A stretch of DNA of 64,000 bases from Verrucomicrobiota bacterium (GCA_021772635.1 JAJFLP010000108.1:24782-88781), one strand, 5' to 3'; shown: positions 1 through 64,000, counted from the stretch's first letter. Made by a program: numbers and translations. Notes: a model not told the origin generated them from the sequence alone.

Positions 1-700
1 CCGCCGCGAGTCATGGCGTCACAAGCACCGGCGGCTGAGGACATCCGCCCTCCAGATTACACGGGCGAAGCGCATGTTGGAGTTCACGCTTTAGCGTGCA
101 AGTCAGTATTGCTGCAAGCTAAAGCTTGAACTCCAAAATACCGCCGAACCCAAGTTTCCTTTTGTATTAACCGACTCAGCGGAGCGCGTCGGTCGACGCT
201 CCTCTGAAACTTCGTCATTTTGACACACTAAAGTGTGAACTCCAACGGGTGCTACTTGCATACGAAAAGATAGGTGTTGTTAAGGTCCCCTGTTGGAGTT
301 CATGCTCTTGACACGACATAGCCATTGGCGACGGCGGTTCAGCGTGCCTTAACCTGAGTTTCCTATTATCTTAACCGGGGCGGTACGGCCCGGACGATTG
401 CTCCCTTGAAACGTGGGCATTTTGACACACTGAAGCGTGAACTCCAACGGCCCCGAACACATACCAATCCTTTAACTAAGTGATATTGGTATTGATAGAC
501 CCGGAATTATCGGGCAGTCGCCGCTTTCTTCAAACTTCGCGTATTTCTGATATTATACTGTTAGGTTTTTAACCCAAGATTCCGGATAATCACGCGTTGA
601 TCGCAGTAGCGTTTGAGCTCGCGCTTTGACCCGACGCGGCCCGACCGGCGACGGCAGGTCAGCGTGTTCTAATGAGCTAATAGTTTCTCCCATACTTGAT
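1..700. repeat. Composite array of hairpin repeats (family A). Inverted copies of GTTGGAGTTCACGCTTTAGCGTG / CACGCTAAAGCGTGAACTCCAAC are joined to a CAAGGGAGCAATCGTCCGGGCCGTACCG..CCGGTTAA module.
   Basis: Seen directly. GTTGGAGTTCAC at 76-98 pairs with GCTAAAGCTTGAACTCCAA at 118-136. Further arms lie at 222-247, 290-315 and 432-450. The stretch 340-400 is the reverse complement of 5776-5830 and of 6045-6100. A degenerate copy runs 640-700. Confidence 0.8.
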
Positions 701-794
701 CGGCGTAGCGAACGGCCACCGATGTTCGGGGCACTGAAATTTCGCTGTCCGAATCGATATCCATGTACGCTGCTCCCCGGTCACTCGGTAGGAC

Positions 795-1934
795 TCAAGC
801 GGGGGCTCCCTTCAAGGACCTCGATGCAATCGGTATCGATCCGAGTTCGCCCAGTCGCGGGTTCGCATCCAGGTCTAACTGACTCGTGGAGTCGTTGCAT
901 AAATAATAATATGCAAGTCCGCCTATCATCGCGGCATTGTCAGTGCAGTACTCTAGCGGCGCAATTGCGAGATTTATATCACGCGCGTCGACGGCAGCGC
1001 GGATTTTGGTCCGGAGTCGACTATTACAAGCTACCCCCCCGCAAAGTACTAAAGTTCTCGGTTGGTAATCGTCTATGGCCCAAACGGTTTTTCGCGTTAA
1101 CGCGTCGACGACTGCCTCCTGGTAACTTGCGACCGTATCTAAAAGTATCGGGTCGAGATTTGCAAGATTTTCTTTTACTGCAGAATCAGGCGTTACGAGC
1201 GAGTCGATTCCCGCCAATCCCTGTTTCTTCGCGTGATACAGTAGCGCGGTTTTAACACCGCTGAAGCTGAAGTTTAGTCGGTTTTCGGCACTTACTCGAG
1301 TTCCCGAAGTCCCCAGTAAACCGCGCGGGAATTGGAACTTCTCGGGATCACCGAAGGTCGCCATTTTATCAATCAATGGACCACCCGGATAACTTAAATT
1401 GAGAATTCTAGCGCCTTTGTCAAAGGCCTCGCCAGCGGCATCATCCAGTGTTCTACCGACAATGCGACAATCCCCGTCCAGCTGAATTAGAACTAATGCT
1501 GTGTGTCCGCCTGAAACCACGAGTGCGAGCACGGGAAAATTGCGTGGGTCGGCTATGAGTTCCTGTCTGTCTATGAACGCACCGAATATATGAGCCAGGA
1601 AGTGGTTAATACCGATAACAGGCCGGTCAATAGCCGCGGCCAACCCTTTTGCGTACGATATCCCGACCAGGAGGGCAGGAAGTAATCCGGGGGAGTGAGT
1701 CACTGCGACGGCATCGATATCTTTAAGTCCGACCTTCGCGGCGGCGAGGGCATAATCCACTGCTGGACCGATTGATCTCAGGTGTTCGCGTGCCGCTAAC
1801 TCCGGAATGACTCCTCCGTAGAGAGCGTGCTTATCAATTTGCGAGGTAATGACATTCGAGAGAATATCGTGGCCGTCGACTGCCACCGCGACCGCGGTTT
1901 CGTCGCAACTCGTTTCAATACCGAGAATGTGCAT
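795..1934 (-). CDS. tsaD: tRNA N6-adenosine threonylcarbamoyltransferase TsaD (Kae1/Gcp family)
   Basis: N-terminus MHILGIETSCDETAVAV, with HSPGLLPALLVG and GGVACN motifs typical of TsaD. At 379 aa it is somewhat longer than usual at the C-terminus. Confidence 0.9.
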   Translation of the reverse strand: MHILGIETSCDETAVAVAVDGHDILSNVITSQIDKHALYGGVIPELAAREHLRSIGPAVDYALAAAKVGLKDIDAVAVTHSPGLLPALLVGISYAKGLAAAIDRPVIGINHFLAHIFGAFIDRQELIADPRNFPVLALVVSGGHTALVLIQLDGDCRIVGRTLDDAAGEAFDKGARILNLSYPGGPLIDKMATFGDPEKFQFPRGLLGTSGTRVSAENRLNFSFSGVKTALLYHAKKQGLAGIDSLVTPDSAVKENLANLDPILLDTVASYQEAVVDALTRKTVWAIDDYQPRTLVLCGGVACNSRLRTKIRAAVDARDINLAIAPLEYCTDNAAMIGGLAYYYLCNDSTSQLDLDANPRLGELGSIPIASRSLKGAPA

Positions 1935-2133
1935 ATACTGATCGTCTTCGAGTTTTTTAACGCCATTAAGGCACGCTATAGTTTTGCCGGACAGAAAAAC
2001 GGCGGAAGTTCATGCTGTAGTCCACCACCACGGCGAGACATGTTGCCGGTTAAAAAGTATGATCGGAAAATTCGACTGGCGTGGCGGTCGAAATCTGCAG
2101 CCTAGTACCATGTAATGGTGCTAGACTGAGGGG

Positions 2134-3474
2134 TTACTCCTCGCTTTCGTTACGCTCTAAGGTGTCGTCGGTCGGGAGTTCCGCGGACTTGAGAATCTTA
2201 GCGAAGTCGACCTCTCTTCCTTTCGACATCACCGTGAGTCCTTTCAATACCTCTATTGCACGGCTTAGTTGTTTGTCTTCTATATCCTCGACCTTCAGCT
2301 CCTGGTCGTCAATACTTCCGGCGATTCTCGAACGCTGCAGCGCGAGTTTGTGCGCGTCTTCATCGCTAATATCTACGACAAAATCCGGCTCAATACCGTT
2401 GTCGTGAATTACTCGTCGACTTGGCGTATAGTACTTCGCCGTCGTTAAACGGACCGCGCTACCATCATCAACCTCGATTATACTTTGGACCGAGCCTTTC
2501 CCGAAACTTTTCTCTCCAACAATCAGCGCGCGCCCATAGTCTTGGAGACACCCCGCGACAATCTCCGCGGCGCTGGCGCTCCCTTCGTTTATCAAGACTG
2601 CAATAGGCCAGTCAAGATACTTGTCTTCGGACGACGACCGATATTCCTGCTTACGGCTTTCGGTTCGACCCTCCGTGGACACGATTAGCTGGCGCTTTGG
2701 AATAAACAGGGAACTAACGTCAACGGCAGACGTTAATAAGCCACCTGGGTTGTTACGCAGATCAAGGACAAGCGCCTTTATCTCTTTCCCTTTAAATTTC
2801 TGAAGTTCCTGGCCAAGAGAATCGGCAGATTTTTCGTTAAATTGCGTTATCCGGATATATCCAATTTCAGGCTCTACTATCTTCGTATCCTTTATCGTGG
2901 CAATCTCGATAATTGCGCGTTCGATAGTCAGCGTCTTAGTTTCCTTGGTGGATGGTCGGAAGACCGTTATTTCCACCACAGTCCCGAGGTCTCCCTTTAT
3001 TAAGTTCACTGCCTGATCCAAAGTTAAGTCGGCGGTCTCTTTATCATTGACTTTAATTATCTTATCGCCGGCAAGAATTCCCGCCTTCATCCCCGGTGTA
3101 TTATCCATCGGTGCAACAACGGTCAACACACCATCTTTCATCGATATAACGACGCCGATACCACCGAACTCACCTTCTGTTTCCTCTCGCATTTTCCCAT
3201 ATTCTTCCGGGGTAATAAACGAACTGAAGCGATCCAGCGAAGTCAACATTCCCTGCATAGCGCCGTATATGAGGTCCTGATAATCAATTTTTGATTCGTC
3301 GACGTAGTTCTTGCGAATAAGTTTCAACACATTCGCGAACTGCCTGATCGTCTGATATCCCTTTTCCTGTCCGGTTTCCTTTTCTATTGCGGAGTGGACG
3401 TTAAATCCGATAATCAGATTGCACGTCAAGGCGACGATTATACAATAGAAAATAATATTCAGTCGTTTCGGCAT
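2134..3474 (-). CDS. ctpA: C-terminal processing (tail-specific) peptidase, S41 family, with a PDZ domain
   Basis: N-terminal signal or anchor, a PDZ region (GDKIIKVND) and the S41 core LVLDLRNNPGG...SASAAEI. Confidence 0.85.
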   Translation of the reverse strand: MPKRLNIIFYCIIVALTCNLIIGFNVHSAIEKETGQEKGYQTIRQFANVLKLIRKNYVDESKIDYQDLIYGAMQGMLTSLDRFSSFITPEEYGKMREETEGEFGGIGVVISMKDGVLTVVAPMDNTPGMKAGILAGDKIIKVNDKETADLTLDQAVNLIKGDLGTVVEITVFRPSTKETKTLTIERAIIEIATIKDTKIVEPEIGYIRITQFNEKSADSLGQELQKFKGKEIKALVLDLRNNPGGLLTSAVDVSSLFIPKRQLIVSTEGRTESRKQEYRSSSEDKYLDWPIAVLINEGSASAAEIVAGCLQDYGRALIVGEKSFGKGSVQSIIEVDDGSAVRLTTAKYYTPSRRVIHDNGIEPDFVVDISDEDAHKLALQRSRIAGSIDDQELKVEDIEDKQLSRAIEVLKGLTVMSKGREVDFAKILKSAELPTDDTLERNESEE

Positions 3475-3630
3475 AATCAGCTATTAATCGATTAAAGTTG
3501 GATACTTGTAAATCGGTTCATCGACCACCAATCTACTACGCGAGTAATTATTCGTAAACTGACGGCTGAAAGTATTTCTGCCACATTGGCTGGCGGGGCT
3601 TATTGGGATTTTGACGGCGATCATACGTTA

Positions 3631-3685
3631 ATCCCACCAGTGGGTTTAATTCCCGACGCTTGGCCCGAGGCAGTTGATTTAACAC
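3631..3685. repeat. Repeat module U: CCACCAGTGGGTTTAATTCCCGAC...GGCCCGAGGCAGTTGATTTAA
   Basis: The same bipartite motif recurs at 30563-30668 and 57739-57853. The left half alone recurs at 5965-5980. All four copies sit in 5' or divergent intergenic regions. Confidence 0.6.
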
Positions 3686-3983
3686 GAATGTAATTTGATT
3701 ATTGTCTATTCGCAACGGACAACGACAACACAAAGAGCGACGACATAGTATTATTGGGTACGCTTTTATCCTGCGCCGGATGTTTATTGACGGGAAAGAC
3801 ACCTTCCTATTTCGTGTCGTATGGCGAACCCTAAGACACTCGCAAATTACTAATCCCCGACTGGGGTTCTTTCGCCGGTGCTAACAGCAGCGATCATCCT
3901 CTTTGGGTTACGTCCTTACTTACAGTGTGGAATGAGGCGCCGTAAAAGATATTTTCTCAAGCGGTCCTAATGATTACATACCG

Positions 3984-5432: not shown

Positions 5433-5439
5433 TATTAAT

Positions 5440-6215
5440 CTTGTGCGGCAGAGCACGTCCATAACCGCTCGTTCGTAGCGGCGTAGTGCGTAATATTACC
5501 TCGCGGTATACTGGAGACTTGCGCCGGCGGCAGCCCCCCCTGGCGCACGGATTATCGGTCGTTGTACTGCCCGCGATCTCTCTCCGCATTCTCGGAGTCC
5601 GCTCGTCCGGACCGCATCAGCGAGAGTCTCGGACATTCTGAATCGGGATTAAGAAACAAGCAGTAAAATTTTGGGTCCGTATGAACGGACTCCGCTCGCG
5701 CGGAGCTGACTTTGAATTCATTACTTAAGGGATATCGAATGTGTCATGCAGAAAATAAAATATGGAACAGGAAGGGAGCAACCGTCCGGGCCGTACCGGG
5801 CCGGTTAATAAAATAGGAAACTTGGGTTCGTCGGCATTTTGGAGTTAAAGCTTTAGTTTGCAGTAATACCGACTTACAAGCTGAAGCTTGAACTCCAAAG
5901 GCCGCACAGTCGAGCCGATATTGAATGTGATAAGCAGCCTCAAAATCTTTTAAGTTTCAGAGGAGCCCACCAGTGGGTTTCTTTTTTGACCCACTTATTA
6001 CAATACGAAACGGGCCCACAATATTGAAGATTTCCGCCAAGTTTCAAGGGAGCAATCGTCCGGGCCGTACCGCCCCGGTTAATATAAAAGGAAACTTTAG
6101 ATACGACACGCTAAAGCGCGAACTCCAACAGCGATCACTGCAACACGAATTCGCTGGTATGCTGGAGTGCCCGTTGGAGTTCACACTTTAGTGTGTCAAA
6201 ATGACGAAGTTTCAA
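5440..6215. repeat. Composite repeat array built from modules S, T-reverse and A, plus two copies of the CAAGGGAGCAATCGTCCGGGCCGTACCG module
   Basis: The run 5575-5665 matches 53350-53430. The run 5680-5745 is the reverse complement of 46340-46400. Runs 5776-5830 and 6045-6100 are direct copies of each other. Hairpins GTTGGAGTT..AACTCCAA lie at 5835-5895, 6113-6135 and 6170-6195. Confidence 0.8.
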
Positions 6216-7658
6216 GGGAGTCCTGTGGATTTATATACCCGAATAAACCGATTACGCTTAGACCGTCTGCCAACTGATAACCGAGTATGGATTATCTTGG
6301 TGAGAGCGACTTTCAGTTTTCGGAATCTGGGGCGGTCGGTCTGGGCGTTCGTCCTCCCTGTAATGTTGATTTCACCTGTAACGACCGTCGGACAGGTATT
6401 GGACGACATCGATTTCTCCTTCTCTATCGAGACTCGAGCTCACGTCCGAGACAGCGAGGGCAACGATTTTCCTATCAATTTTCCGACTAACGCCGCATTA
6501 AAAACGGTTGACCCGGGAACTAACCTGGAGATTTCGACAGTTACACTTCGGTCGGATATTGACTACAAGGATCTCCTTCGACTTCGACTAAGAGTTCAGT
6601 TAATAGATTTATATGACCGCAATTCAACATCGGACGACTCGAAGATTGACGTCGACGAATATTCTCTACGCATTGGCACTGAGGTACCTGCTGGCGAAAC
6701 ACCTGTCAACGACGCGCGAAATATATACCTGAAATTGGGGAAATTCGGTAAGTTCGAGCGGCAACGGGATCGTCATCTCGAAAGCTATGGGCTGGTTTCG
6801 ACTGCGTTTAATCGCTTCGAAGACCTGGGACTCGAGATCGGATTCGATATATCACCGCATGTCTATGTGAAGGGCTCATTGACATCGGGCAATCCACTTT
6901 TTATCCGCGACCCCAACGCCCTTGCTGGCGACAATGGAACTTCCGATTTTCTTCGAAAGCGCGATCCCAAGTTGAATAATGGCGTTGTTATACTGTATGA
7001 CGCGGAAGTTGAGAATCTCCAGTTCGATCATGAGTTCGCAGAGATCGGGCTCGGCTTGGGCGTTCGGTTCGTCAACCCGGAGGCAACGCGTTATCTCGAC
7101 TTTCTACTGTTCGCATATGAACGAGACTTGAAACGAGAGGCGAAATTATTTGGGACTTTGTACGGAGGAGATCTCGACGTCCTCGATGCCCCGGGGCCGA
7201 ATACCTTTCAGGATGGAGAGGTCGTATTGAACGGCTTGACCGGGGATTACAAGCGTGAGTATGGTGCTAGTTTATGGATATATCTCGACGATTTCGCTGT
7301 GTTCGGGCAGTTCGTCCAACAGGATGTCGGCGGGCTGGATCGCGAAGGCTGGGAAGTTGAAGTCTCCCGTAAGTATTTTATGCCGGAGACGCTATCTATC
7401 AGAGGAGTTCCAATTCTTATATCTATTACACCGGTAATTCGTTACTCTATAATTGATCCCGACTTCACGGGTCCAGGGGACTTCCCGGCACCGAGCACTT
7501 TCTGGGAATGGGAGAAGGTTGATATCGGGGTGAAATTCGGAATAATGCGGGGGCTGGATGTCACGGTCGAGTATGCGTTCAATGAATTCGTGCGTAGCGG
7601 TCGAGATGAGGAGAATAATGAATGGTTAACTACCTTGCGGTGGCGGTACGGGTTCTAG
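6201..7658 (+). CDS. Putative outer-membrane beta-barrel protein (porin-like). The start codon is uncertain.
   Basis: The C-terminus ends ...LRWRYGF, a terminal aromatic typical of OMP barrels, with alternating hydrophilic and hydrophobic strands. The first ATG at 6201 lies inside a repeat copy (ATGACGAAGTTTCAAGGGAG), so the real start is probably downstream, near 6290-6340, ahead of a signal-like VWAFVLPVMLISPVTTVGQ. Confidence 0.55.
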   Translation: MTKFQGSPVDLYTRINRLRLDRLPTDNRVWIILVRATFSFRNLGRSVWAFVLPVMLISPVTTVGQVLDDIDFSFSIETRAHVRDSEGNDFPINFPTNAALKTVDPGTNLEISTVTLRSDIDYKDLLRLRLRVQLIDLYDRNSTSDDSKIDVDEYSLRIGTEVPAGETPVNDARNIYLKLGKFGKFERQRDRHLESYGLVSTAFNRFEDLGLEIGFDISPHVYVKGSLTSGNPLFIRDPNALAGDNGTSDFLRKRDPKLNNGVVILYDAEVENLQFDHEFAEIGLGLGVRFVNPEATRYLDFLLFAYERDLKREAKLFGTLYGGDLDVLDAPGPNTFQDGEVVLNGLTGDYKREYGASLWIYLDDFAVFGQFVQQDVGGLDREGWEVEVSRKYFMPETLSIRGVPILISITPVIRYSIIDPDFTGPGDFPAPSTFWEWEKVDIGVKFGIMRGLDVTVEYAFNEFVRSGRDEENNEWLTTLRWRYGF

Positions 7659-7725: not shown

Positions 7726-8349
7726 TTAATTTAGGAGATCGGCGTGTTCGTTATGTCCGTACCGCGCGCCTGGCAGATCTCGGTCGCGCGTATAAGGCGG
7801 TGTTTCAGAGGTGGGCATTTGGTAATCTGGAAAATCCTCCAGCCATTGCGCTCGCGACTCGTCGTCTGCGAAATACCTGAGGTATAACTGGATATCTTCA
7901 TCGCTACCGCTTCCGACGAGGTCAACATAGAAGGCGGAGTGTTCATCCAATGGGATAATTACAGTCTCCTCCCGTAAATGTTTATCCCATAGTCGGCTGT
8001 ATAGAGCGCGGTCATTCAGATGATTCGTGTTCTCCAGAAATACGCGGAATCCAGCTAGTGCCTCGACGAGCAGCCATAAACGAAGGCGCAGCTCTGCCTC
8101 ATTCATTGCGTCAGGCGGAGTAAGTTCGAATCCCGCGTTAACGAGTTCCTGAAAATAGTTTCCTTTCGGCATTTTCTCGAAGTCAACAATTCGTTGCCAG
8201 AATTGCTCTTCGACTTCTGGCGGACAATCTGTTGAATCCGTGAAGAATACCTTCCCGCCGGCTATCCTTTCGGCCTCGCGCTTAAGCTTGCTGATCCGTA
8301 TTTCTATATCGACGCGTTTGAGCTTCTCGTTCAGATTTTCTTCATCCAT
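7726..8349 (-). CDS. Hypothetical acidic cytoplasmic protein
   Basis: A clean 207-aa ORF fills the gap between neighbouring genes. No recognisable motif. Confidence 0.45.
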   Translation of the reverse strand: MDEENLNEKLKRVDIEIRISKLKREAERIAGGKVFFTDSTDCPPEVEEQFWQRIVDFEKMPKGNYFQELVNAGFELTPPDAMNEAELRLRLWLLVEALAGFRVFLENTNHLNDRALYSRLWDKHLREETVIIPLDEHSAFYVDLVGSGSDEDIQLYLRYFADDESRAQWLEDFPDYQMPTSETPPYTRDRDLPGARYGHNEHADLLN

Positions 8350-9935: not shown

Positions 9936-10054
9936 AATTTCTTCCGTTAGAGTAGTTTTAATATTTTCGGACTTTTTTGCGCGATTAATCTATACCGCAA
10001 GCGGTACAATTTTCCGACGACTTTGAAATGATTGCGTAAGAGACTCCGAGCGAT

Positions 10055-10085
10055 TTTTCGTCCCGCATGCGGTATGAAGACGCTT
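10055..10085. repeat. Single reverse-orientation copy of hairpin module T (CGTCTTCATaCCGCATGCGGGACGAAAAAT)
   Basis: Contains the palindrome CCGCATGCGG. It matches 46338-46365, 63895-63925 and 54681-54700, and sits in the gltB-gltD spacer. Confidence 0.6.
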
Positions 10086-10120
10086 AGGCTAAATCACTCA
10101 AGAACTGGACTGTTTAAAGT

Positions 10121-28697: not shown

Positions 28698-28907
28698 CTC
28701 TATTCTTCATCTCCGCGCCTCCGTGGTATATTATTTGTTTATCTTTCTTTCGTCTGGTGTAGCTTCCCCGTTCGCCCCGAGGTCGTTCTGCAGTCTGGCG
28801 CGAATGAAAACAGGTGATATTACTTCTTTTTCGACTTCGTTTCTTCCAGGATCCAGAAGCGAGCATCCAGGATCCAGGATCGAGAAGTGAGCATCTGTTC
28901 CCGTTCG

Positions 28908-30562: not shown

Positions 30563-30668
30563 TAATCCCAACAGTAGGTTCAATTCCCGGTTCTGCTGTC
30601 CAGCACGAACGTAGTAAAGCTTTAAGAGTCTTTCATCCCGTGGGCTTGCCCCGAGGCAGTTGATTCAA
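30563..30668. repeat. Repeat module U copy (variant AATCCCAACAGTAGGTTCAATTCCCGG ... CCCGAGGCAGTTGATTCAAT) in the bioH/cupin divergent region
   Basis: Shares both halves with 3631-3685 and 57739-57853. Confidence 0.55.
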
Positions 30669-30683: not shown

Positions 30684-31145
30684 GTGGTCCCCGGCAGGCA
30701 TTTCTTTACGATGATTAAACGATACATATTGCTTATACTCGTCACACCCTTAGCCTGCAGTTCCTGTGTATCCATTCGCCGCGGGGCAATCATTTCGACG
30801 GGCAAGACAATATATCACGCGAACTGGAGCGAAGAGGAACACGGAGACGAAATAGTCGTTAAAACGTTGAATGTCACAGATACAGCCAGTTATCACGTCA
30901 TTCGATTGGTGACCGCGGAGAAGCCCCATATACATGACTATCACGATTTGACGGTATTCGTACTTAAAGGGAGGGCGAGAATGAATCTCGGCGATCGTAC
31001 TGAAATCGTTAAGGCAGGAGACGTTATTGAAATCCCTCGCGGTGTCGTTCATTGGGCGGAGAACATCGGCCGGCAAGCCAGTGAAGTTTACGCGGTATTC
31101 AGTCCGCCATTTGACGGGGTTGACCGAAGATTCGTGGCGGAGTAG
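30684..31145 (+). CDS. Cupin-domain protein with an N-terminal lipoprotein-like signal
   Basis: LLILVTPLACSSC lipobox-like signal, and a cupin motif with a conserved His pair (HIHDYHD...GDVIEIPRGVVHWAEN). Confidence 0.6.
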   Translation: MVPGRHFFTMIKRYILLILVTPLACSSCVSIRRGAIISTGKTIYHANWSEEEHGDEIVVKTLNVTDTASYHVIRLVTAEKPHIHDYHDLTVFVLKGRARMNLGDRTEIVKAGDVIEIPRGVVHWAENIGRQASEVYAVFSPPFDGVDRRFVAE

Positions 31146-31149
31146 ACCG

Positions 31150-31240
31150 ATGGTCTTCAGGTTTTTGAAATATTGTTCGATATCCCTTAGGTAATGAATT
31201 CAAAGTCGTCAAAAAATTGCAATGCCTGCAGTATGAAATT
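31150..31240. repeat. Composite repeat copy (T-like, the GATATCCCTTAGGTAATGAATTCAAAGTCGTC module, and a degenerate palindrome TTGCAATGCCTGCAGTA)
   Basis: Matches 46340-46400 and 63900-63965. Confidence 0.6.
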
Positions 31241-33409: not shown

Positions 33410-33963
33410 AGCTCGATTGTTTCTGACTTCATAGGTGGGTCCGACTGCAAAGACCGGGTACTTGCAGGCATCGCAACCCATACGCGTTATCTCACTTCTA
33501 ACATTACCGAACCATATGCATGCACCCAATAGGCGCGACCGCTTCGCATCCGATCAGGGGTCTCGAATTTATCGTTCTGCCAACCTAATACATTGAGAGC
33601 TGGTGGGAGGATAACGGAAGTGGAACCGGAAACGACTCCAACCGTCGGGAAGATTAATGAGGAAAGTTGTACTGTGCTTACGTAGGATACGTCAGAAACC
33701 AGTGCTTGCACGTCATCGATAATACCGTTAACGTCGAGGAAATAATCAACAATACCAGGCTGAACAGCCATTCGATACCGCCTATCGCACTATTGTCCGC
33801 CGAATCCGTTCGCGTAATCCCGACGAAAACTCCATGACGTTCGGTATATTACGATCGGAAGCTACGCCTCTCAAGATCGTCGTCGAGTTCGGGATTGAAA
33901 GTAAGTCGATAGCCATTCCGATTTCGATCCCGAAAACCTTAAATCTCAAGGGAATCCACAAAG

Positions 33964-37487: not shown

Positions 37488-37583
37488 TGTATACCGAAAA
37501 TCATCAGGTTTTCGAAATATCGTTCGAATTCTCTTGCGCGGTTAGTTGAGAGTTATCCAAAAATTGTACTGCATGCAGTATAG
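37488..37583. repeat. Composite repeat copy ending in TTGTACTGCATGCAGTATAG (14-bp palindrome)
   Basis: The palindrome sits at 37567-37580. The upstream part resembles 45079-45126 and 54695-54745. Confidence 0.65.
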
Positions 37584-41546: not shown

Positions 41547-41581
41547 GAAAATCGAAAATCAGAAATCAGAAATCGAAAATT
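41547..41581. repeat. Tandem heptamer-like repeat (GAAAATC/AGAAATC x about 5) in the dnaX-ybaB spacer
   Basis: Seen directly: gaaaatcgaaaatcagaaatcagaaatcgaaaatt. Confidence 0.6.
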
Positions 41582-41586
41582 AAAGA

Positions 41587-43596
41587 TCATCCCCGAACAT
41601 CGACGATCTCGCCGTTAAACATTTTTAAGACCGTTTTAACGAACTCGTTCTTCGCCAGAGCTTCCCAAATGTCTGCGTTGGATTCCAGGTCCTTGCCCGT
41701 TTCGATGTTGAATGACGAGCTGAAATTCTCGGTGACATCTTGAAACTCGATTTTCGGTTCAGGGTGCTTCGTGATTCGAGATAAACAGCGCGTCAATGTT
41801 TGAATAACGTCTTGATTAGTAAAATCTCTCGCATGCTCCGGCGAAAATTCATCGGATATCCCAATAGTAAGAGACTGGCCGTCGTAAGACAACGGAATAG
41901 CCTCTCGCATGTGCATGTGCAAGGCGGCACGCCCCGGCAATTTTCCGACTTCCTCCGTAAGAATATGCCAATACGTTGTCGCAGATTCTCTCGATGATTT
42001 TTTATCGATTTCAGGGATAGACGGGGCATTGTCTTGATCGTTGATGCTTAGCGAAGAACGTAGATCCGCCGCGTCGATTTCAGTTGTCGTATCCGGTGCG
42101 ATTTCCATCTCTGTCGGTTCACGCATCCCATGGTGCTCGTCCGATTGCGAGGCGAATTGCTCCTCAGTTGTGTGATAAGAAACTGGCGTCTCAGTCACGG
42201 GTGCGTTTTGTTGGGGGTGGCGTATGGACGAAGATTCCTCGATAGACGCCCGCTGAGACGTCCGCGGTTCAAGCGGCGCGCTGGCATCGGATTCCGGATG
42301 ACTCTGGCCCTCCACCGGCGCCAGATCGGGAGGCGGGGGTGTTTCGTCCACAGAGGATGATGGAGCCTGTTCAGCGAGCGGTGGCGGTGTGCCCGTGTCG
42401 TTGTCGTTCCGAGAAATATCACCTTTGCGTTGCCGAAGTTGGTCTATTACCGCGTCTAAGGAAACCGAATGTGCATCGCGCATGACCCGCAGAAACGTGA
42501 CTTCTATAAATACTTGTTTGTTTAGGTAACTGCGGATACTACTTTCAAATGACATCAATCCTTCCAGCACTCTTCCGACAACTTCCGGTGTGCTCGCCTT
42601 CGCCATGCATTGATATTCGTCGAACTCAGTGTCGCTCAAGTCTATTATTTTCTTTGGATCATCGACCGTCTGAAAAATCATGACGTTGCGGAAGCATAAA
42701 AGTAAGTCTGCGTATAAACGTTCCAGGTTTTTACCCTGGTTCACTAAGTCATGCACAATGGAGATCACTTTATTCGGGTCATTGCCGATAATCGCATTGC
42801 CTAAGGCTCGAAGGTCGGTGTCAGAACTTAATCCGAAAACGTCGGTGACATCCGATTCCGTGATAGTTGAGTCTTTGTCCCCCTCACTGTGTCCACAAAA
42901 CGAAATCATCTGATCAAATATGGACTGAGCATCGCGCATCCCTCCGTCCGCTGCCCGTGCGATTACGTTAAGCGCACCTTCGTTTACGCCGATCTTTTCT
43001 TTCTCCGCGATCTCGCGTAAACGTCTGACTATCGTTGGTACCGCGATCCGTTTGAGATCGAATCGTTGGCAGCGGGAGACAATGGTCGGTAAAACTTTGT
43101 GGGCTTCTGTGGTTGCGAAAAGGAACTTGATATGCGGCGGGGGTTCTTCGAGAGTCTTTAATAAGGCGTTCCACGCTGCCTGAGAGAGCATATGAACTTC
43201 GTCAATGATATAGATTTTATATTTTCTGCCGTTTGTCGGTGTATACTGGACATGGTCCCGAAGTTCACGAATATCATCAACTTTGTTGTGCGACGCGCCA
43301 TCGATCTCCACTACATCCAGGCAGTTTCCGTTGGCGATTTCGGTGCACGATTGACACTTGCAACAGGGTTCTAAACTTTCGTCCGTATCCGAAACTGGCG
43401 AAGTGCAATTCAGGGCCTTCGCGAAAATTCGTGCAGAAGTTGTCTTCCCGATTCCACGGGGGCCGACGAAGAGATATGCGTGAGCGACCCGGTCTTTTAT
43501 GATTGCGTTCTGCAATGTTCGGGTGATGTGTTCTTGATCTAGTACGTCACTGAACTTTTGCGGACGCCATTTGCGCGCGATTACTTGATAGGACAT
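41587..43596 (-). CDS. dnaX: DNA polymerase III subunits gamma/tau
   Basis: N-terminus MSYQVIARKWRPQKFSDVLDQEHI and the AAA+ Walker A GPRGIGKTTSARIFAKALNC, plus a zinc module CCKCQSC. Confidence 0.95.
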   Translation of the reverse strand: MSYQVIARKWRPQKFSDVLDQEHITRTLQNAIIKDRVAHAYLFVGPRGIGKTTSARIFAKALNCTSPVSDTDESLEPCCKCQSCTEIANGNCLDVVEIDGASHNKVDDIRELRDHVQYTPTNGRKYKIYIIDEVHMLSQAAWNALLKTLEEPPPHIKFLFATTEAHKVLPTIVSRCQRFDLKRIAVPTIVRRLREIAEKEKIGVNEGALNVIARAADGGMRDAQSIFDQMISFCGHSEGDKDSTITESDVTDVFGLSSDTDLRALGNAIIGNDPNKVISIVHDLVNQGKNLERLYADLLLCFRNVMIFQTVDDPKKIIDLSDTEFDEYQCMAKASTPEVVGRVLEGLMSFESSIRSYLNKQVFIEVTFLRVMRDAHSVSLDAVIDQLRQRKGDISRNDNDTGTPPPLAEQAPSSSVDETPPPPDLAPVEGQSHPESDASAPLEPRTSQRASIEESSSIRHPQQNAPVTETPVSYHTTEEQFASQSDEHHGMREPTEMEIAPDTTTEIDAADLRSSLSINDQDNAPSIPEIDKKSSRESATTYWHILTEEVGKLPGRAALHMHMREAIPLSYDGQSLTIGISDEFSPEHARDFTNQDVIQTLTRCLSRITKHPEPKIEFQDVTENFSSSFNIETGKDLESNADIWEALAKNEFVKTVLKMFNGEIVDVRG

Positions 43597-43706: not shown

Positions 43707-43838
43707 AAAATCGTTGTAGTCGACCCGCAGGTGTTCCTACAGCGCATAACATTGGCGCTTAGAGCTGCTCGGTTCCCCGTCTGACCCGGTTCACGTAATA
43801 CTATCGCATAGGTCCCACGGGTCGACTACAACGATTTC
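43707..43838 (-). ncRNA. ffs: Probable signal recognition particle RNA (4.5S/ffs), small bacterial type
   Basis: The minus-strand read GGGUCAGACGGGGAACCGAGCAGC (plus 43765-43788) matches the SRP domain IV consensus CAGG-UCC-GGAA-GGA-AGCAGC. The apical stem shows a compensatory change (UCC/GGA to CGG/CCG) and keeps the GGAA tetraloop. An 18-bp perfect terminal helix pairs 43710-43727 with 43818-43835. It lies immediately upstream of dnaX, the common ffs position. Confidence 0.6.
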
Positions 43839-44894: not shown

Positions 44895-45150
44895 GGATGA
44901 TATTTTAACCGGCATTCTGCTGGCGGGCAGTAACGCCGGGTCGAAAACCTAAGGATAATCAGAATAGCTCCCTGTGCTCTTGCGGGACTTGAGGCACCGG
45001 CGAAATTTATTCGGCGATATATACCGAAAGTCATGGAGTTTTCGTCCGGATTACCCGAGACTCTCGCTTTTGCGGAGAAATATCGTTCGGAAATTCTTGG
45101 CTGATAAACTCGAAGCCATCCCGAAATTGTACTGCATGCAGTAAAACTAT
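44895..45150. repeat. Composite repeat array: palindrome Q variant (CCGGCATTCTGCTGGCGGGCAG..), module V (TATACCGAAAGTCATGGAGTTTTCGTCCGGATTAC), module R (ATCGTTCGGAAATTCTTGGCTGATAAACTCGAAGCCATCCC) and the palindrome TTGTACTGCATGCAGTA
   Basis: Q at 44903-44955, V at 45008-45060, R at 45079-45126, P at 45127-45143. Module V matches the reverse complement of 33786-33860. Confidence 0.75.
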
Positions 45151-46320: not shown

Positions 46321-46490
46321 CTTGATGTATACCGAACGTCTTCATCCCGCATGCGGGACGAAATATTGTTTGATATCCCTTAAGTAATGAATTCAAAGTC
46401 GTCTCTCCGTATTCTCGGAGTCCGCTTATGCGGACCGCACGAGCGGAGTCCGTCCATACGGACCAAAAATTGTACTGCTTGCAGTATGTT
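46321..46490. repeat. Composite repeat array: T hairpin (TCCCGCATGCGGGA), the GATATCCCTTAAGTAATGAATTCAAAGTC module, the S double hairpin (TCTCGGAGTCCGCTTATGCGGACCGCACGAGCGGAGTCCGTCCATACGGACC) and the palindrome TTGTACTGCTTGCAGTA
   Basis: Nearly identical to 63881-64000. The S module also occurs at 5582-5640 and 53350-53410. Confidence 0.8.
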
Positions 46491-48282: not shown

Positions 48283-48469
48283 CGTTCCGAGCCTTGGATC
48301 AACTAATTTTATAAGCCTCGCACCGAACATTCAATTCTACCTGATCGAATTCCCCGGAGGCAGTATTCCACGTAGTTCTTCCTTCCCAAAGGGCACCGAA
48401 ATTCTTCGACAACGCTCAATTTTTTCAATACATGCAACATAGGCTTGTGACCTATGTCAAAGACGTAGA

Positions 48470-48706
48470 CTGCCCCGATCGCTGTCCGAATCGGGATTAA
48501 GAAACAAGCAGTCCGATTTTCAAACGGCTTGGATGCATTCGCGCAAGGGATTCCGAACGATTTTGCAAAATTCCAAGGCGATCAAGATAAACTGCAAGCA
48601 GTTGAAATTATGAATGATTTAAATCCAACTGCGTATAAGATTTCGAACCATATTTTTTAACCGGCATTCTGCTGGCCAGCAGAACGCCTGGTCGAAAACT
48701 CGAAGG
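48470..48706. repeat. Repeat array: the GAATCGGGATTAAGAAACAAGCAG module, an AACTGCAAGCAGTT palindrome variant and the 30-bp palindrome Q (CCGGCATTCTGCTGGCCAGCAGAACGCCTGG)
   Basis: The run 48485-48508 matches 5641-5665. Palindrome Q at 48655-48706 matches 53492-53545, and 60159-60203 in reverse orientation. Confidence 0.75.
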
Positions 48707-49662: not shown

Positions 49663-49700
49663 CACGAATCACGAAACACGAATCACGAATCACGAAACAC
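49663..49700. promoter_or_regulatory. Tandem heptamer array (CACGAAT/CACGAAA x5), 24-60 bp upstream of the DUF2330-like gene
   Basis: Seen directly: cacgaatcacgaaacacgaatcacgaatcacgaaacac. Confidence 0.5.
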
Positions 49701-51124: not shown

Positions 51125-51235
51125 TATATATTGGGGACCGTTGGAGTTCGCGCTTCAGCGTGGTATTTCTTACCAGGAACTTAAGAACCACGCCCCGCGA
51201 CTGCGTGGGCGCGAACTCCAACATGCGCCTTGAAC
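51125..51235. repeat. Family A hairpin copy (GTTGGAGTTCGCGCTTCAGCGTGG ... CGCGAACTCCAAC)
   Basis: Arms at 51135-51150 and 51211-51226. Confidence 0.65.
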
Positions 51236-51601
51236 CTGTCTCGTTTCCTTAACTTAGATGTAAAGTTGAGCTAATCGGCTTATTCGAGCAGAGATTAGGG
51301 CTTGTAGCAGAATACTGATGAATTATTCAGGTTAGGTGGCTCTTTGCGAGAAATGGAAATTTTCGGGTTGAAAATAGTCCCGAATTCGTTCACTATATGT
51401 AACTATTCAGGTTGTCTGATTCAGACGTTTAACGGCTAAGTTAAGAACTAAGAGGGTCGAACCGTTGTTTAGGTTTGTTCTTCCAATTACCAGGTTTTTA
51501 ACCGCTGAACGGTGAACCCTGAACCCTGAACCGTTAACGTTTCAATTCTCATACCGCGTGGGTGTTTTCCACGGAGGCTGAAGAATATTCTTACCAATTA
51601 T

Positions 51602-51844: not shown

Positions 51845-51935
51845 AAATATACTGCAAGCAGTACAGTTTTTTGCCAACTTTGAATTCGTTACCTAAGATG
51901 ATCTATGTTGAGCCTAGCGAAATCCGCCGCGGTGG
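51845..51935. repeat. Degenerate reverse-orientation repeat copy (ATACTGCAAGCAGTACAG plus TTGAATTCGTTACCTAAG)
   Basis: Reverse complement of the TTGTACTGCTTGCAGTAT module, plus a degenerate copy of GACTTTGAATTCATTACTTAAGGG. Confidence 0.5.
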
Positions 51936-52240
51936 AAACGATATTTCGAAAACCCGACGGTGTTGCATATAGCGTCGTTGCGATATCGCCGTACCTCATG
52001 GCGTAAATCGAAATAAATTTTCCCTGACTGCTATTTCAATTTGATCATTTCGTCAATACAGTCCACTCGTTGAGTTTTACGCCATTAGCGCAATTTCGAG
52101 AATCGCGTTCGATGTAAACTCCTGGTTTTGCTGACCAGGGCAATCCGAATTGCATAGTGGCCCGGAATTAATCACACACTAGACCCCAAAACCGAAGGCC
52201 ATTTCATTCCTCCACGCGGGGCCGAGGCGATCAGGACAAT

Positions 52241-52612: not shown

Positions 52613-52802
52613 CCCCAATTCCAACGAACCTTTCGTTGGATTTTCTTCGTAATCGAACTCGAAATCATAATCGTAATCTCTTTCCGAATTTCACCTCGAA
52701 AAACTAGAGATACTATGATTACGAGTAAGTGTAAGATTACGAATCGGAATGTTCGCTTATTTAGAGTGTTAGCAGTCAATTTCTCAGAAGAAGGGGTAAT
52801 AG

Positions 52803-53204: not shown

Positions 53205-53545
53205 TTTGCCCGATCTAATTTTGAATCGGGATTTGGAAACAAGAAGCCCCATTCTCGGTTTGGTATCGACGTATAGGCGACTTAAGGTTCTGTCACGTAA
53301 GAGATCCTTAACGATCGAAAACTCCGAGGCGGAATGGATATCGCCCACGATCTCTCCCCGTATTCTCGGAGTCCGCTCGTGCGGACCGCATAAGCGCGAG
53401 TCTCGGACATTCTGAATCGGGATTTGATAACAGGCAGTACAATTCTTGGAAGACTTTTAACTTATCACCTAAAGGTTTCCGAACGGTCTATTTTTAACCG
53501 GCATTCTGCTGGCCAGCAGGACGCTTAATCGAAAACCCAATGAAG
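53205..53545. repeat. Repeat array: the GAATCGGGATTTGGAAACAAGAAG module, the S double hairpin, GAATCGGGATTTGATAACAGGCAG and palindrome Q
   Basis: The run 53225-53250 and the run 53413-53438 match 5641-5665 and 48485-48508. The run 53350-53410 matches 5582-5640. Q lies at 53492-53545. Confidence 0.75.
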
Positions 53546-54594: not shown

Positions 54595-54680
54595 TGGATT
54601 AGTCACGAGCCTGATCCATGCGTAAGGCGAGCAAGTGATGGAGAATATGGTATTCCTTGGTGTCTACCGAAAGTAATGGT

Positions 54681-54766
54681 CCCACATGCGGGACGAAATA
54701 TCGTTCGGAAATTCTTGGCTGATAAATTCGAAGCTATCCCAAAAATGTACTGCTTGCAGTATAAGA
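54681..54766. repeat. Composite repeat (partial T hairpin, module R and the palindrome ATGTACTGCTTGCAGTAT) between convergent genes
   Basis: Matches 45079-45143 and 60205-60270. Confidence 0.7.
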
Positions 54767-57411: not shown

Positions 57412-57570
57412 GAGTTATAACCAAACTTTTGTTGGATTTGCAGTGGTGTATCTCGAATTTCCAAGGAACAGTCGTTATACTTTAACAGGCTACCCGGAAA
57501 TGGATGGTATCGAGACGTTTCGCTGTCGCGAGCCGCATAAAAAAGGAACCTTTGCAAGCGGTATCTACGG

Positions 57571-57732: not shown

Positions 57733-57738
57733 TGAATT

Positions 57739-57853
57739 CCACCAGTGGGTTTCATTCGCCGACCGTTGACGTGCCAATCAGCGCTCTCGTCGGAGACGAA
57801 CAGTCTCATTCCGGGTGACAGCGGAATTCGGCTGCGTCGAGGCAGTTGATTCC
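57739..57853. repeat. Repeat module U copy immediately upstream of rubredoxin
   Basis: CCACCAGTGGGTTTCATTC at 57739-57757 and CGAGGCAGTTGATTCC at 57838-57853. Confidence 0.55.
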
Positions 57854-60121: not shown

Positions 60122-60158
60122 CACGACATGAGGAGAAATTTATCCCAACAATCGCGGA

Positions 60159-60270
60159 GTTTTCGACTAATCGTTCTGCTGGCCAGCAGAATGCCGGTTA
60201 AAAATGTATCGTTCGGAAATTCTTGGCTGATACCTTCAATGCTACCCCAAAATTGTACTGCTTGCAGTAT
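60159..60270. repeat. Repeat array: palindrome Q in reverse orientation, module R and the palindrome TTGTACTGCTTGCAGTAT, ending 27 bp before fetA
   Basis: Q at 60159-60203, R at 60205-60250, P at 60253-60270. Confidence 0.75.
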
Positions 60271-60296
60271 ATCCCTGAATCATCAGCACGCAATTA

Positions 60297-60971: not shown

Positions 60972-60972
60972 A

Positions 60973-61746: not shown

Positions 61747-61761
61747 GGATTTGCGAGGACT

Positions 61762-62730: not shown

Positions 62731-62938
62731 CCCCCCCCAAAAAAAACGGTTTTATTCTCGGACCGTTGCCGTGTTTGCTACGCTTGACGACGATGCGACA
62801 GTATCGCCTTACATGTGACGCTGCACCTGACAAGGTAAAAATACGACTCGCAAAATATCAATTATTCATGCAATCAGGCTAGTGTGCATAATGTAGGCTA
62901 GTGTGGTGTCCCTTGCGGGCTTGTCTCGCGATCGTTTG

Positions 62939-63322
62939 TTACGGCGAACGAGTGCTATCCAACTGCACGCGTAGCATTTTTACTCGATACCAACCGATGA
63001 ATAACGCGAAGGCCAGCGCGCAGAAGTAAAACCCGTAATGATCATGGTCTACAGGCAGGACTGTTTCCAAGAGAATATCGAGTATGACCAGGAATCGCCA
63101 ACTTAGCTCCCATCTGTTAATGAAATATCCGTCAGCATTGAATCGGTGGACTGCGATCAACAGAATCACTACGACAATAATTCCGCTACCGACAATGTAA
63201 GTGCGATCCATCCACATCCAGATGTGGAACACCGCTAGATACACGGCAAGCAGGATTAGATCGAAGGTCCAGTTTTTCAAACTTGGAATTGCCGTGTTCG
63301 TCCCGGACGGTTCGGAAATCAT
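62939..63322 (-). CDS. Hypothetical membrane protein (about 3 transmembrane helices)
   Basis: ORF coupled to the upstream receiver gene by a 4-bp overlap. Confidence 0.4.
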   Translation of the reverse strand: MISEPSGTNTAIPSLKNWTFDLILLAVYLAVFHIWMWMDRTYIVGSGIIVVVILLIAVHRFNADGYFINRWELSWRFLVILDILLETVLPVDHDHYGFYFCALAFALFIGWYRVKMLRVQLDSTRSP

Positions 63323-63690
63323 GTCTCCTCGAGAAGTTCTTTCGTGATCGCGATCAAGGCAACGGACGAAATAGGCTTGGGATGACAGCGATCCGCGCCC
63401 ACGTCAAGTGCGGATTCCAGAACGCTTTCCGAATCTACAATTCCGCCGCCTGAGAGCGCTAAGATCTTAATCAGCGGAAACTCGCGGCGAATTTCGGCGG
63501 TGATCTCCAGTCCGTCTTTCCCGGGCATAAATATATCGGTAATAACTAAATCAACCGATCGGGCGCGTAATTTCTCCATCACCAACATTCCGTTCTCGGC
63601 AATATCGACTGCGTAGCCCTTTGCTTCCAGGATCGCACGGATTGACCGTCTGACCAACTCGTCGTCATCTATGAGTAAGATATTAGCCAT
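63319..63690 (-). CDS. Single-domain response regulator (CheY-like receiver)
   Basis: ILLIDDD...VITDIFMPGKDG...ILALSG. Paralogous to the regulator at 52241-52612. Confidence 0.8.
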   Translation of the reverse strand: MANILLIDDDELVRRSIRAILEAKGYAVDIAENGMLVMEKLRARSVDLVITDIFMPGKDGLEITAEIRREFPLIKILALSGGGIVDSESVLESALDVGADRCHPKPISSVALIAITKELLEET

Positions 63691-63791
63691 AACTTCGGCA
63701 GCCTCGATTTATGGCGGGATTCGCGAGGGATGGACCACACGTTTCTGTGAGGTATCGCAGATTACCAGTAGAGCCGCCGTACCGTATATAA

Positions 63792-63865
63792 TGGAGCGGG
63801 TGGAGGGAATCGAACCCTCGTAATCAGCTTGGAAGGCTGGGGCTCTACCATTGAGCTACACCCGC
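63792..63865 (-). tRNA. tRNA-Gly (anticodon UCC)
   Basis: Reverse complement reads GCGGGUG-UA-GCUC-AAUGGUA-GAGC-C-CCAGC-CUUCCAA-GCUGA-UUAC-GAGGG-UUCGAUU-CCCUC-CACCCGC-U-CCA. It resembles bacterial tRNA-Gly isoacceptors. Confidence 0.85.
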
Positions 63866-63880
63866 CGCGACTGGTACTGG

Positions 63881-64000
63881 TTAGCACTATAATTTACCGA
63901 ACGTCTTCATCCCGCATGCGGGACGAAATATTTTCGATATCCCTTAGGTAATGAATTCGAAGTCGGCTCTCAGTATTCTCGGAGTCCGCTTATGCGGACC
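63881..64000. repeat. Composite repeat (T hairpin, the GATATCCCTTAGGTAATGAATTCGAAGTC module and the S hairpin), truncated by the window edge
   Basis: Near-identical to 46325-46445. Confidence 0.75.

Follow-up and report, generated by a model that had tools for sequence, protein, structure and literature searches.

We analysed 64,000 nucleotides of DNA from a Verrucomicrobiota bacterium (GCA_021772635.1, JAJFLP010000108.1:24782-88781; hereafter the window, meaning this whole stretch), whose intergenic spacers had been described, in a reading made from the sequence alone, as a mosaic of small palindromic modules. The repeats are real, and they form two families of non-coding, hairpin-bearing dispersed repeats of the same general kind as repetitive extragenic palindromic (REP) units and bacterial interspersed mosaic elements (BIMEs). 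The best explanation of the whole, to which we give a probability of about 0.68, is that family A is a REP family, with doublets of the type called REPINs (REP doublets forming hairpins), belonging to a clade of REP-associated tyrosine transposases (RAYTs), and that family B is a lineage-specific repeat carrying nested hairpin inserts.

Two repeat families account for the intergenic modules

Each module named by the sequence-only reading was found several times, where dinucleotide-preserving shuffles predict about zero copies: the family A 23-mer had seven matches at up to three mismatches, TACTGCATGCAGTA six, the S unit five, the T hairpin and the GATATCCC... module four each, and the GAATCGGG... 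module three. Self-BLAST of the window, a check that had been proposed, returned 24 repeated segments totalling 1,768 nt, every one of them in spacers, while profile and pattern searches raised the repeats to about 2.2-2.4 kb in 23 composite intervals. This corresponds to 3.5-3.8% of the window and to about 21-23% of its 10.5 kb of intergenic DNA, so the density is indeed high within the window, but the coverage of spacers had been overstated. The total is nearer 2.2-2.4 kb than the 3 kb first suggested, and modules lie not in nearly every spacer over about 80 bp but in 14 of the 33 that reach at least 80 nt, the stretch from about 10.1 to 31.1 kb being free of repeats.

Scaffold alignment, pattern and profile searches all bore out that the modules occur in different combinations and on both strands. 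No copy lies within a convincing coding sequence, as had been claimed; just two mechanically called starts of open reading frames (ORFs), at 6201 (left end of module U) and 31217 (right end of family B), overlap element ends by about 20 nt, and the true starts are probably further downstream, for example at the GTG at 6226. Although at least five modules had been proposed, and all those named do exist, the eight reduce to two families with variable internal modules. Copies of the proposed 30-bp palindrome (P30) are present but imperfect, the best having two mismatches and three others being more diverged. In agreement with the statement that none of the modules matched a nameable family, Rfam searches of the window and of eight loci from other genomes, at gathering and at permissive thresholds, returned nothing on any module; the only Rfam matches in the window were two tRNAs and the signal recognition particle (SRP) RNA. 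The sequence-only reading was on the whole sound, but the repeats are less exotic than that statement implies.

Family A joins an invariant arm to a covarying hairpin

Family A is built from a 23-nt unit consisting of a sequence-conserved arm, (GTT)GGAGTT, and a 5-bp hairpin with a covarying stem and a TTYA loop. The window holds 10-11 such units in five spacer clusters, including three doublets and one long doublet, and the loci collected from other genomes hold 93 doublets. Most copies are inverted doublets of 50-75 nt with the form GTTGGAGTTCA-hairpin-spacer (10-60 nt)-hairpin-TGAACTCCAAC. Module U, which always lies beside family A arms, makes up the interior of long doublets such as that at 292-448; its folding is no better than that of shuffles. 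Compared with shuffles, family A doublets, and likewise S and P30, form far more stable folds (z values of -4 to -7).

The hairpins are supported by covariation in doublets from other genomes. In the half of the doublet that the search pattern left free, the stem CACGC/GCGTG is replaced by CAAGC/GCTTG, CAGCC/GGCTG, CAACC/GGTTG, CATGC/GCATG or a longer unrelated hairpin. On 49 distinct doublets, a model with two local hairpins gave six pairs and 37 cells with double changes, a value equalled in none of 500 shuffles and set against 4-12 cells in slid controls, while the nine nucleotide pairs of the outer arm never covaried. A single long hairpin spanning the doublet was rejected, since its score did not exceed that of shuffles and the pairs 12-39 and 21-30 were broken in about half of the sequences.

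The foot of the hairpin reads GGAGTT followed by CACGC, with AGAGTG, AGAGTT and GGAGTC as variants of the arm; the canonical GT[AG]G tetranucleotide does not occur at or within 1-2 nt of the hairpin foot, and only the final AG is common with GTAG. An invariant arm, a hairpin kept as structure and a conserved loop are nonetheless the signature of a REP, and indicate that a protein recognises the unit while the nucleic acid is single-stranded. Family A, whose long form has module U as its spacer, is a new REP/REPIN family of a known system, with an atypical arm and conservation across phyla.

Family A units flank RAYT genes in other genomes

A motif scan of the collected loci identified one Y1-transposase-like ORF, with the motifs NHYH...YIHHNP, on a Verrucomicrobiota contig (L080/L121). 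Two family A doublets and extra arms lie 5' of this gene and a third doublet overlaps its 3' end, and among these units is the exact 23-mer of the window, identical to that of the doublet at 76-137. The advice of the sequence-only reading to look for a cognate RAYT, like its REP/BIME analogy, was therefore right for family A. The encoded protein has more than 1,800 homologues of about 200 aa, and we examined six further loci (49-53% identity, 43-70% GC, one labelled Candidatus Electryonea). In each of these the RAYT gene is single copy and set among housekeeping genes, with inverted units within tens of bases on either side; counting the first locus, inverted units stand on both sides of the gene in all seven. 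The flanking units of the six further loci are close variants of the 23-mer and share the design RGAGT(T/C/G)(C/G), a 4-5 bp stem and a TTYA loop, and a structural scan of the same loci found such units only beside the RAYT genes, with 0.0 expected per 64 kb of shuffled sequence.

All seven homologues match the NCBIfam model NF047646 (REP-associated tyrosine transposase) over the full profile, with E values of 1e-20 to 1e-24, two of them above the curated cut-off of 80 bits, and the best solved structure for them is the E. coli TnpA-REP (4ER8). RAYTs of this clade are found widely among Verrucomicrobiota and Planctomycetota and, in addition, in some other phyla. Family A is therefore the REP of this clade of HUH/Y1 enzymes, and conservation of the unit across phyla accompanies conservation of the enzyme. 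In the L121 contig (1-3814) the RAYT gene lies directly 3' of a cas cluster encoding a Cas3-like helicase, Cas_GSU0053 and Cas_GSU0054.

Family A is shared across phyla

To follow family A in other genomes, GTDB representative genomes were queried with a 23-mer carrying four two-fold degenerate positions. Among the matches listed, the exact 23-mer was present at more than 116 loci, overwhelmingly in Planctomycetota (Pirellulaceae, Planctomycetaceae and Fimbriiglobus) and Verrucomicrobiota (Limisphaerales, Verrucomicrobiales, Terrimicrobiaceae, an Akkermansia metagenome-assembled genome (MAG) and Lentisphaeria); a few of the bins carry labels of other groups. Besides family A itself, these loci have nothing in common with the window. 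A scan of IMG/VR gave six matches among 2.9 million contigs, which makes phages at most a minor carrier, and BLAST of a doublet against PLSDB plasmids gave no match. A full-text literature search for the arm sequence found unrelated primer matches only, and a search for ORFs enclosed by nearby family A units found only ordinary genes.

The nearest relative of the host carries family A at other sites (L027, L075). The spacer between the DUF2330 gene and tRNA-Ala measures 528 nt in the window, where it holds the doublet 51140..51222, and 99 nt in this relative, where it lacks family A. This is consistent with either gain or loss, the divergence being too great to call the short spacer an empty site.

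Some of these genomes arrange the unit in other ways. In some Pirellulaceae (L034 6527-7100, L094 about 7841-7960, L096 about 3468) it forms direct tandem arrays with a period of 39-40 nt and similar 17-nt linkers, unlike the usual inverted doublet, and adjacent to the arrays is a conserved stretch of about 45 nt common to L034 and L094. In Limisphaerales and other Verrucomicrobiae (L010 about 420-560, L020 about 6290-6420, L073 about 3240-3290) doublets are nested in or adjoin another palindromic repeat, GGAGCGCCGG(C/T)CTCCG(G/A)CCCGGC; other members of the Planctomycetes-Verrucomicrobia-Chlamydiae (PVC) group thus build mosaics of their own around the common unit. Crude calling in GC-rich genomes also put doublets within ORFs of 2.4-3.3 kb (L022 5417-6138, L040 4357-4418, L065 1762-1816, L097 3292-3347), which may be spurious ORFs or in-frame REP insertions as in Opitutus terrae (PMC3733652).

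Family B is a scaffold with two variable slots

Family B is a single AT-rich scaffold of about 90-100 nt with an unstructured core, aligned in nine copies and found by its profile in 13-14 copies on both strands, which differ from one another by 10-35%. Its layout is TATACCGAA..GTC.TCA, slot 1, CGAAATATCGTTCGGAA.TCTCTTAGGTAAT.AATTCAAAGTCGTC, slot 2 and CAAAATTGTACTGCWTGCAGTATA, and it ends in the 14-bp palindrome TACTGCWTGCAGTA; the GATATCCC... module and the 14-bp palindrome with its TTG leader, which had been listed separately, are parts of this scaffold. Slot 1 is either empty or holds the T hairpin, the P30 palindrome, always found in this context, or a 31-nt hairpin, and slot 2 carries either nothing or the S double hairpin. 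Two reversed copies have the halves of their terminal palindrome (5565/5660 and 48468/48508) parted by an insertion with the S leader and/or the G module; since G lies inside this insertion, it is part of the inserted piece and not an independent module.

S, P30 and T are stable hairpins. For the scaffold core itself RNAalifold supported the terminal palindrome only, with one compensatory change, and folding was no better than that of shuffles; pairing in the palindrome is kept through double changes at 9991 and 48468. This anatomy makes nested insertion of small hairpin elements at preferred places in an older non-autonomous element the likeliest origin of family B, and the family is best read as a new modular repeat, specific to this lineage but of a familiar general type, comparable with BIME, ERIC (enterobacterial repetitive intergenic consensus) or BOX elements. 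For B, T, S, P30 and G a nature as non-autonomous structured repeats, as the sequence-only reading had it, is plausible, though unproven.

The S unit (CGGAGTC-CGC-TTAT-GCG-GAC) has its arm GGAGTC in common with the units flanking the RAYT genes of L125 and L128, and its stems covary between copies (GTCCGC/GCGGAC versus GTCCGT/ACGGAC). Because of the common arm and the covarying stems, S may be a second class of REP, as far as its sequence indicates. It departs from the family A type in that its loop is not TTYA, its two units stand in direct orientation and no RAYT link was seen. The CnGA foot described for class 3 TnpA-Y1 (PMC6006769) offers a lead only, S having the foot CGGA and the Verrucomicrobial right arms CCGA.

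Relation to known repeat systems

The closest likeness is to REP/REPIN-RAYT systems (E. coli REP and TnpA-REP, 4ER8; Pseudomonas fluorescens REPINs; PMC3116915, PMC3337134, PMC6006769), with which family A shares extragenic units, a conserved 5' arm, a hairpin with a covarying stem, frequent inverted doublets and a single Y1/HUH gene among housekeeping genes with inverted units on both sides (7/7 loci), the protein matching both the RAYT model and E. coli TnpA-REP. It differs from them in its arm, (GTT)RGAG plus 2 nt where GT[AG]G is reported at the foot (PMC6006769), in a stem of just 5 bp with a conserved TTYA loop, and in the conservation of the 23-mer over at least two phyla, the described families being mostly species- or genus-specific. 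The linked RAYT also stands apart by its HUH motif NHYH and its Y motif YIHHNP, which place it in class 2 (Y---NP) of PMC6006769 and nearest to subclass 2.8 (NHYH, YIHYNP); in the sample of that paper subclass 2.8 occurs in Cyanobacteria only, with a remark on relatives in other phyla.

The REP superfamilies tagged with GTAG and CGTC (Di Nocera et al. 2013, PMC3733652) resemble family A in their tagged stem-loop, dimers and variable spacers, and in their occurrence in PVC genomes (Rhodopirellula baltica, O. terrae) that hold several coexisting REP families together with RAYT genes. Family A carries neither the GTAG tag (nor its degenerate forms GYAG, GYRG, GTRG, GTMG or GTGG) nor CGTC, though it may yet be identical with one of the 28 families of that paper. 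Our search of the literature for REPs or miniature inverted-repeat transposable elements (MITEs) in the PVC group found only PMC3733652 and PMC6006769.

At the level of the whole window, E. coli BIMEs are similar as mosaics that combine hairpin units with conserved motifs forming no hairpin, in either orientation and in spacers only, but they have no sequence relation to the repeats described here, which use one scaffold of about 100 nt with fixed slots in place of alternating REPs with short linkers. Family B recalls ERIC, also called intergenic repeat units (IRU), BOX with its A-B-C modules, the repeat unit of pneumococcus (RUP) and the Correia elements (also NEMIS, Neisseria miniature insertion sequences), all intergenic, non-coding, lineage-specific elements of about 100-150 nt with modular or insertion variants, and its possible TA flanks are a further likeness to Correia. 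There is however no sequence similarity to any of these, nor is a cognate insertion sequence (IS) known for B, and unlike ERIC and Correia its core is not an overall imperfect palindrome and it lacks 26-nt terminal inverted repeats. Palindrome-associated transposable elements (PATEs) and other miniature elements derived from IS200/IS605 are comparable in that hairpins lie close to either end, long terminal inverted repeats are lacking and dependence on a Y1 enzyme is possible; on the other hand, the left hairpin is missing in some B copies, and neither a TnpA/TnpB relative nor a conserved target tetranucleotide was identified.

Several other candidates were dropped. A CRISPR array is excluded by the irregular spacing and by the lack of cas genes in the window, and an integron attC site by the order of the family A arms (GTTGGAG...CTCCAAC), which is the reverse of that in attC and bounds no cassette. 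A hammerhead-like three-way junction, a sigma-54 promoter, an integration host factor (IHF) site and a mimic of the tRNA T-arm were discarded on sequence grounds.

Proposed mechanism and alternative explanations

The mechanism that we propose is modelled on established knowledge of E. coli TnpA-REP and of the Y1 transposases of IS200/IS605. A single-copy RAYT, encoded elsewhere in the genome, would recognise the hairpin and arm of family A on single-stranded DNA, for example at replication forks, and by cutting and rejoining at the unit would spread and maintain the doublets in trans. In family B, GC-rich hairpins (T, P30, the 31-nt hairpin, the S doublet and S+G) would insert at the two fixed slots and at the centre of the palindrome. 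Effects on transcripts, such as protection of 3' ends, processing or attenuation by very stable hairpins, would be secondary; E. coli REPs stabilise or terminate upstream messages, and the doublets described here could do likewise.

Several results weigh against this interpretation. The arm is RGAG plus 2 nt and not GT[AG]G directly at the hairpin foot, and several copies in the window are degenerate (292-314, 5838-5899), so that family A may no longer be active here. The window of 64 kb contains no RAYT gene, the link to the enzyme being one of REP homology with other genomes only; five of the seven RAYT homologues fall just below the NF047646 cut-off (70-80 versus 80 bits), and the Pfam Y1_Tnp match is weak. 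As for the second family, B, T, S, P30, G and U are absent from 1.05 Mb of other genomes, almost all of the PVC group, including 34 kb of the nearest relative, whose 21-kb der locus holds repeats at chance level only. In JGI metagenomes the right end of B gave two matches, on contigs of 39% GC that share nothing else with the window, and these are therefore put down to chance. For B we found no transposase, no distinct terminal inverted repeat and neither a target duplication nor an empty site; conserved structure is missing from its core, and its mobility finds no comparative support among the genomes sampled.

A serious rival, which we think somewhat unlikely, would make family B, and possibly the S/G insertion as well, a MITE or PATE that arose by deletion from an IS elsewhere in the genome (a DDE element with TA duplication such as IS630, or an IS200/IS605 element with subterminal hairpins) and is unrelated to the RAYT. 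The size of about 90-160 nt fits, most copies have hairpins close to both ends, and two copies allow the palindrome halves to be taken alternatively as terminal repeats of the insertion. The ends show short imperfect inverted repeats (TACCGAAAG versus TACTGCAAG, 7/9), but these are weak, and the TA that is found at the left end in three copies and at the right end in six may belong to the element itself. Neither a parent IS nor a transposase lies within the window and no empty site was found, and copies that differ by 10-35% speak against a recent burst. That the repeats are instead mainly RNA-level devices for termination, 3' end protection or operon processing, repeated through selection for this role and not through mobility, seems to us distinctly improbable. 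It would account for the great stability of the hairpins (-28 to -44 kcal/mol for family A doublets, -35 for S and -20 for P30), for the typical distance of 35-50 nt between family A doublets of other genomes and their flanking genes, and for the orientation of the palindrome-ended B copies, which are sense to the adjacent gene in 7 of 7 cases with judgeable flanks. Reversed or G-capped B copies are however all antisense, leaving no overall bias (about 7 sense versus 6 antisense), family A is nearly strand-symmetric, and most hairpins lack a U tract; terminators made of a stem and T-run are not in excess (20 versus 22.1 in shuffles) and few overlap the elements, nor are sigma-70 promoter-like sites in excess in the window. 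Copies also lie in divergent spacers, as at 45020 and in 8 of 52 classified family A doublets elsewhere, the other 44 being 27 tandem and 17 convergent, a context not clearly different from background, with ORFs called crudely in GC-rich DNA. An invariant arm with a covarying stem, finally, fits recognition by a protein, and the RAYT association already accounts for the repetition.

We regard it as very improbable that the palindromes are sites for DNA-binding proteins, with the 14-bp TACTG-N4-CAGTA acting as a LexA-type operator, or with sites for nucleoid proteins or gyrase as in E. coli BIMEs. The dyad is perfect, three copies lie 23-130 nt 5' of start codons (der, murG and an ABC ATPase gene), and apart from its shorter spacer it is similar to the gammaproteobacterial CTGT-N8-ACAG box; yet every occurrence closes a repeat of about 100 nt, convergent genes enclose one copy and the gltBD operon contains another, none of the downstream genes belongs to the SOS set, and the LexA box determined for Verrucomicrobia is TGTTC-N4-GAACA (PMC4951493), which is unlike it. 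The double changes that keep the halves complementary suit a hairpin but also suit a dyad. An artefact of assembly, through collapsed or chimeric joins in a metagenome-assembled contig, has almost no chance of explaining the data and is refuted as regards the existence of the repeats. The metagenome run (SRR15505516) does also contain a related genome, and contigs from k-mer graphs do break at repeats, but the copies are diverged (60-97% identity) and differ in their internal modules, as artefacts of duplication would not, and when the same run was assembled independently, four of the contigs agreed with the window at 100% over 13.9 kb, as far as the repeat edges. Gene order across two repeat-bearing spacers (der-maf and DUF2330-tRNA-Ala) is the same in the relative, and more than 100 other assemblies among the matches listed carry family A too. 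Six of the eight ends of the four contigs fall inside repeat modules, which is how k-mer graphs behave at multi-copy sequence and gives indirect evidence for the genome-wide spread claimed in the sequence-only reading; at least three contig breaks (435, 3657 and 37529) are not explained by long identical copies within the window.

Returning to the REP reading of family A, its scope could be wider than proposed above. Family A and its RAYT may form an ancient, largely vertical, PVC-wide partnership with arm and loop nearly frozen over at least two phyla, which in this lineage also spawned S, T and P30 as REP-like hairpins inserting preferentially into the slots and palindrome loop of B; this extended version we consider unlikely. 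If true, a system in which hairpins nest within hairpins would reveal how a Y1 enzyme chooses its target. Provided that nested insertion is the right reading of family B, the scaffold with its slots would be a compact natural record of it.

To our knowledge, almost all work on REP/REPIN-RAYT systems has been done in Proteobacteria, and there no REP family extends beyond one species or genus. A 23-nt REP found unchanged in both Planctomycetota and Verrucomicrobiota would open up a far longer span of evolutionary time, over which one could ask whether such elements are passed down vertically as partners of the host or live as mobile parasites, which REP positions are read by the enzyme (the invariant arm and loop versus the free stem), and whether this RAYT clade is usable as a sequence- and structure-specific nuclease for single-stranded DNA. 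In practical terms, the repeats fragment short-read assemblies of PVC genomes, as the contigs broken within them here illustrate, and create false ORF starts, so recognising them improves annotation.

Genomic setting and catalogue of elements

The window is a segment of bacterial chromosome with a GC content of 49% and ordinary housekeeping genes, including tsaD, a C-terminal protease gene, gltBD, addAB-like genes, sbcCD, der-maf, dnaX-ybaB, murG, the SRP RNA gene and two tRNA genes. Its Der protein is identical to an NCBI entry and to a sequence in a Logan assembly of run SRR15505516. Outside its own genome the closest Der protein (58% identity) belongs to the MAG 'Verrucomicrobia bacterium OFTM300', also from run SRR15505516, and the next named relatives are Lentisphaeria at 47-50%; the host is accordingly an uncultured member of the PVC group near Lentisphaeria. 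The repeat elements are listed in Table 1.

Table 1 Repeat elements of families A and B in the window, with strand, structure and supporting values (E, profile E value; kcal/mol and z, folding energy and its score against shuffles).
Position	Strand	Element	Details
76..137	.	Family A inverted doublet (REPIN-like)	Unit GTTGGAGTTCACGCTTTAGCGTG 76-98 (+), partner 115-137 (-); -32.9 kcal/mol, z -7.3
154..246	-	Module U (154-210) and single family A unit (224-246)	One composite, 76-246, with doublet 76-137
292..448	-	Long family A element	Degenerate arm 292-314 and good arm 426-448 around module U 358-412; Logan contig L001 ends at 435, within an arm
5565..5746	-	Reversed family B copy	Terminal palindrome split, TACTGC 5565-5570 / GCAGTA 5660-5665, by insertion of about 87 nt (S leader, S unit, G module); second S unit 5674-5694 in slot 2
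5772..5899	+	Module U (5772-5821), then degenerate family A doublet (5838-5899)	-28.2 kcal/mol, z -7.0
5954..6129	+	U-like copy 5954-6010, module U 6041-6095, family A unit 6107-6129 (-)	
6173..6221	+	Family A unit 6173-6195 and left end of U	Overlaps mechanically called ATG 6201
9991..10090	-	Family B with T hairpin, between gltD and gltB	E 3.5e-20; compensatory change in terminal palindrome, TACCGC..GCGGTA
31143..31235	+	Family B, both slots empty	E 5e-21
33814..33849	-	Family B left-end fragment with GGAGTTTTCG... insert	Self-BLAST and pattern search
37490..37583	+	Family B, both slots empty, 5' of der	E 2.9e-21; Logan contig L133 ends at 37529
44903..44950	+	Diverged P30 palindrome with GGTCGAAAAC tail	Likely remnant of a reversed B copy
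45020..45145	+	Family B with 31-nt hairpin in slot 1, 23 nt 5' of murG	E 4.1e-21; Logan contig L118 ends at 45087
46328..46488	+	Family B with T hairpin in slot 1 and S double hairpin in slot 2	S double hairpin -35.1 kcal/mol, z -5.9; other end of Logan contig L118 at 46357
48466..48567	-	Reversed B core	E 4.3e-9; palindrome halves GACTGC 48468-48473 / GCAGTC (48508), split by 34-nt insertion holding G module 48488-48512
48591..48701	-	Reversed B with P30 (48657-48690) in slot 1	P30 -19.6 kcal/mol, z -4.3
51140..51222	.	Family A doublet with enlarged interior, 66 nt 3' of stop codon	-44.2 kcal/mol, z -7.4
51848..51948	-	Reversed family B	E 4e-11
53223..53247	+	Isolated diverged G module	
53343..53540	-	S leader, S unit and G-like module capping reversed B, P30 (53494-53525) in slot 1	E 3.1e-11
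54662..54763	+	Family B with T hairpin, between convergent genes	E 2.6e-22
60153..60271	+	Family B with inverted P30 in slot 1, 26-38 nt 5' of ABC ATPase gene	E 1.2e-18; Logan contig L132 ends at 60178
63893..64000	+	Family B with T and S, running off window end	

Other features of the window

Outside the two families, the exact 14-mer CGAGGCAGTTGATT occurs three times on the + strand (3666-3679, 30652-30665 and 57838-57851), each time in a spacer 5' of a + strand gene (3984, 30684 and 58114) and preceded by 60-80 nt of weakly similar sequence. An independently assembled contig ends beside the first copy. The 14-mer may be a regulatory site or another small repeat.

Between about 15,100 and 16,040 gene orientation flips from - to +, and the cumulative GC skew has its minimum at about 12-16 kb, adjoining two spacers without repeats (282 and 205 nt). 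This switch could be a boundary related to replication, or simply a divergent promoter region. The SRP RNA gene (43722-43820) is bracketed by a 20-nt inverted repeat (43708-43727 and 43818-43837) that lengthens its terminal helix past the Rfam model.

Finally, five arrays of short tandem repeats lie in spacers. Four arrays (28845-28895, 41547-41589, 49663-49700 and 51500-51532) consist of the heptamers TCCAGGA, GAAAATC, CACGAAT and AACCCTG, in 4.6-5.4 copies each, and the fifth (52647-52678) of 2.7 copies of a period-12 unit; several of these arrays lie directly 5' of start codons and recall the short tandemly repeated repetitive (STRR) sequences of cyanobacteria.

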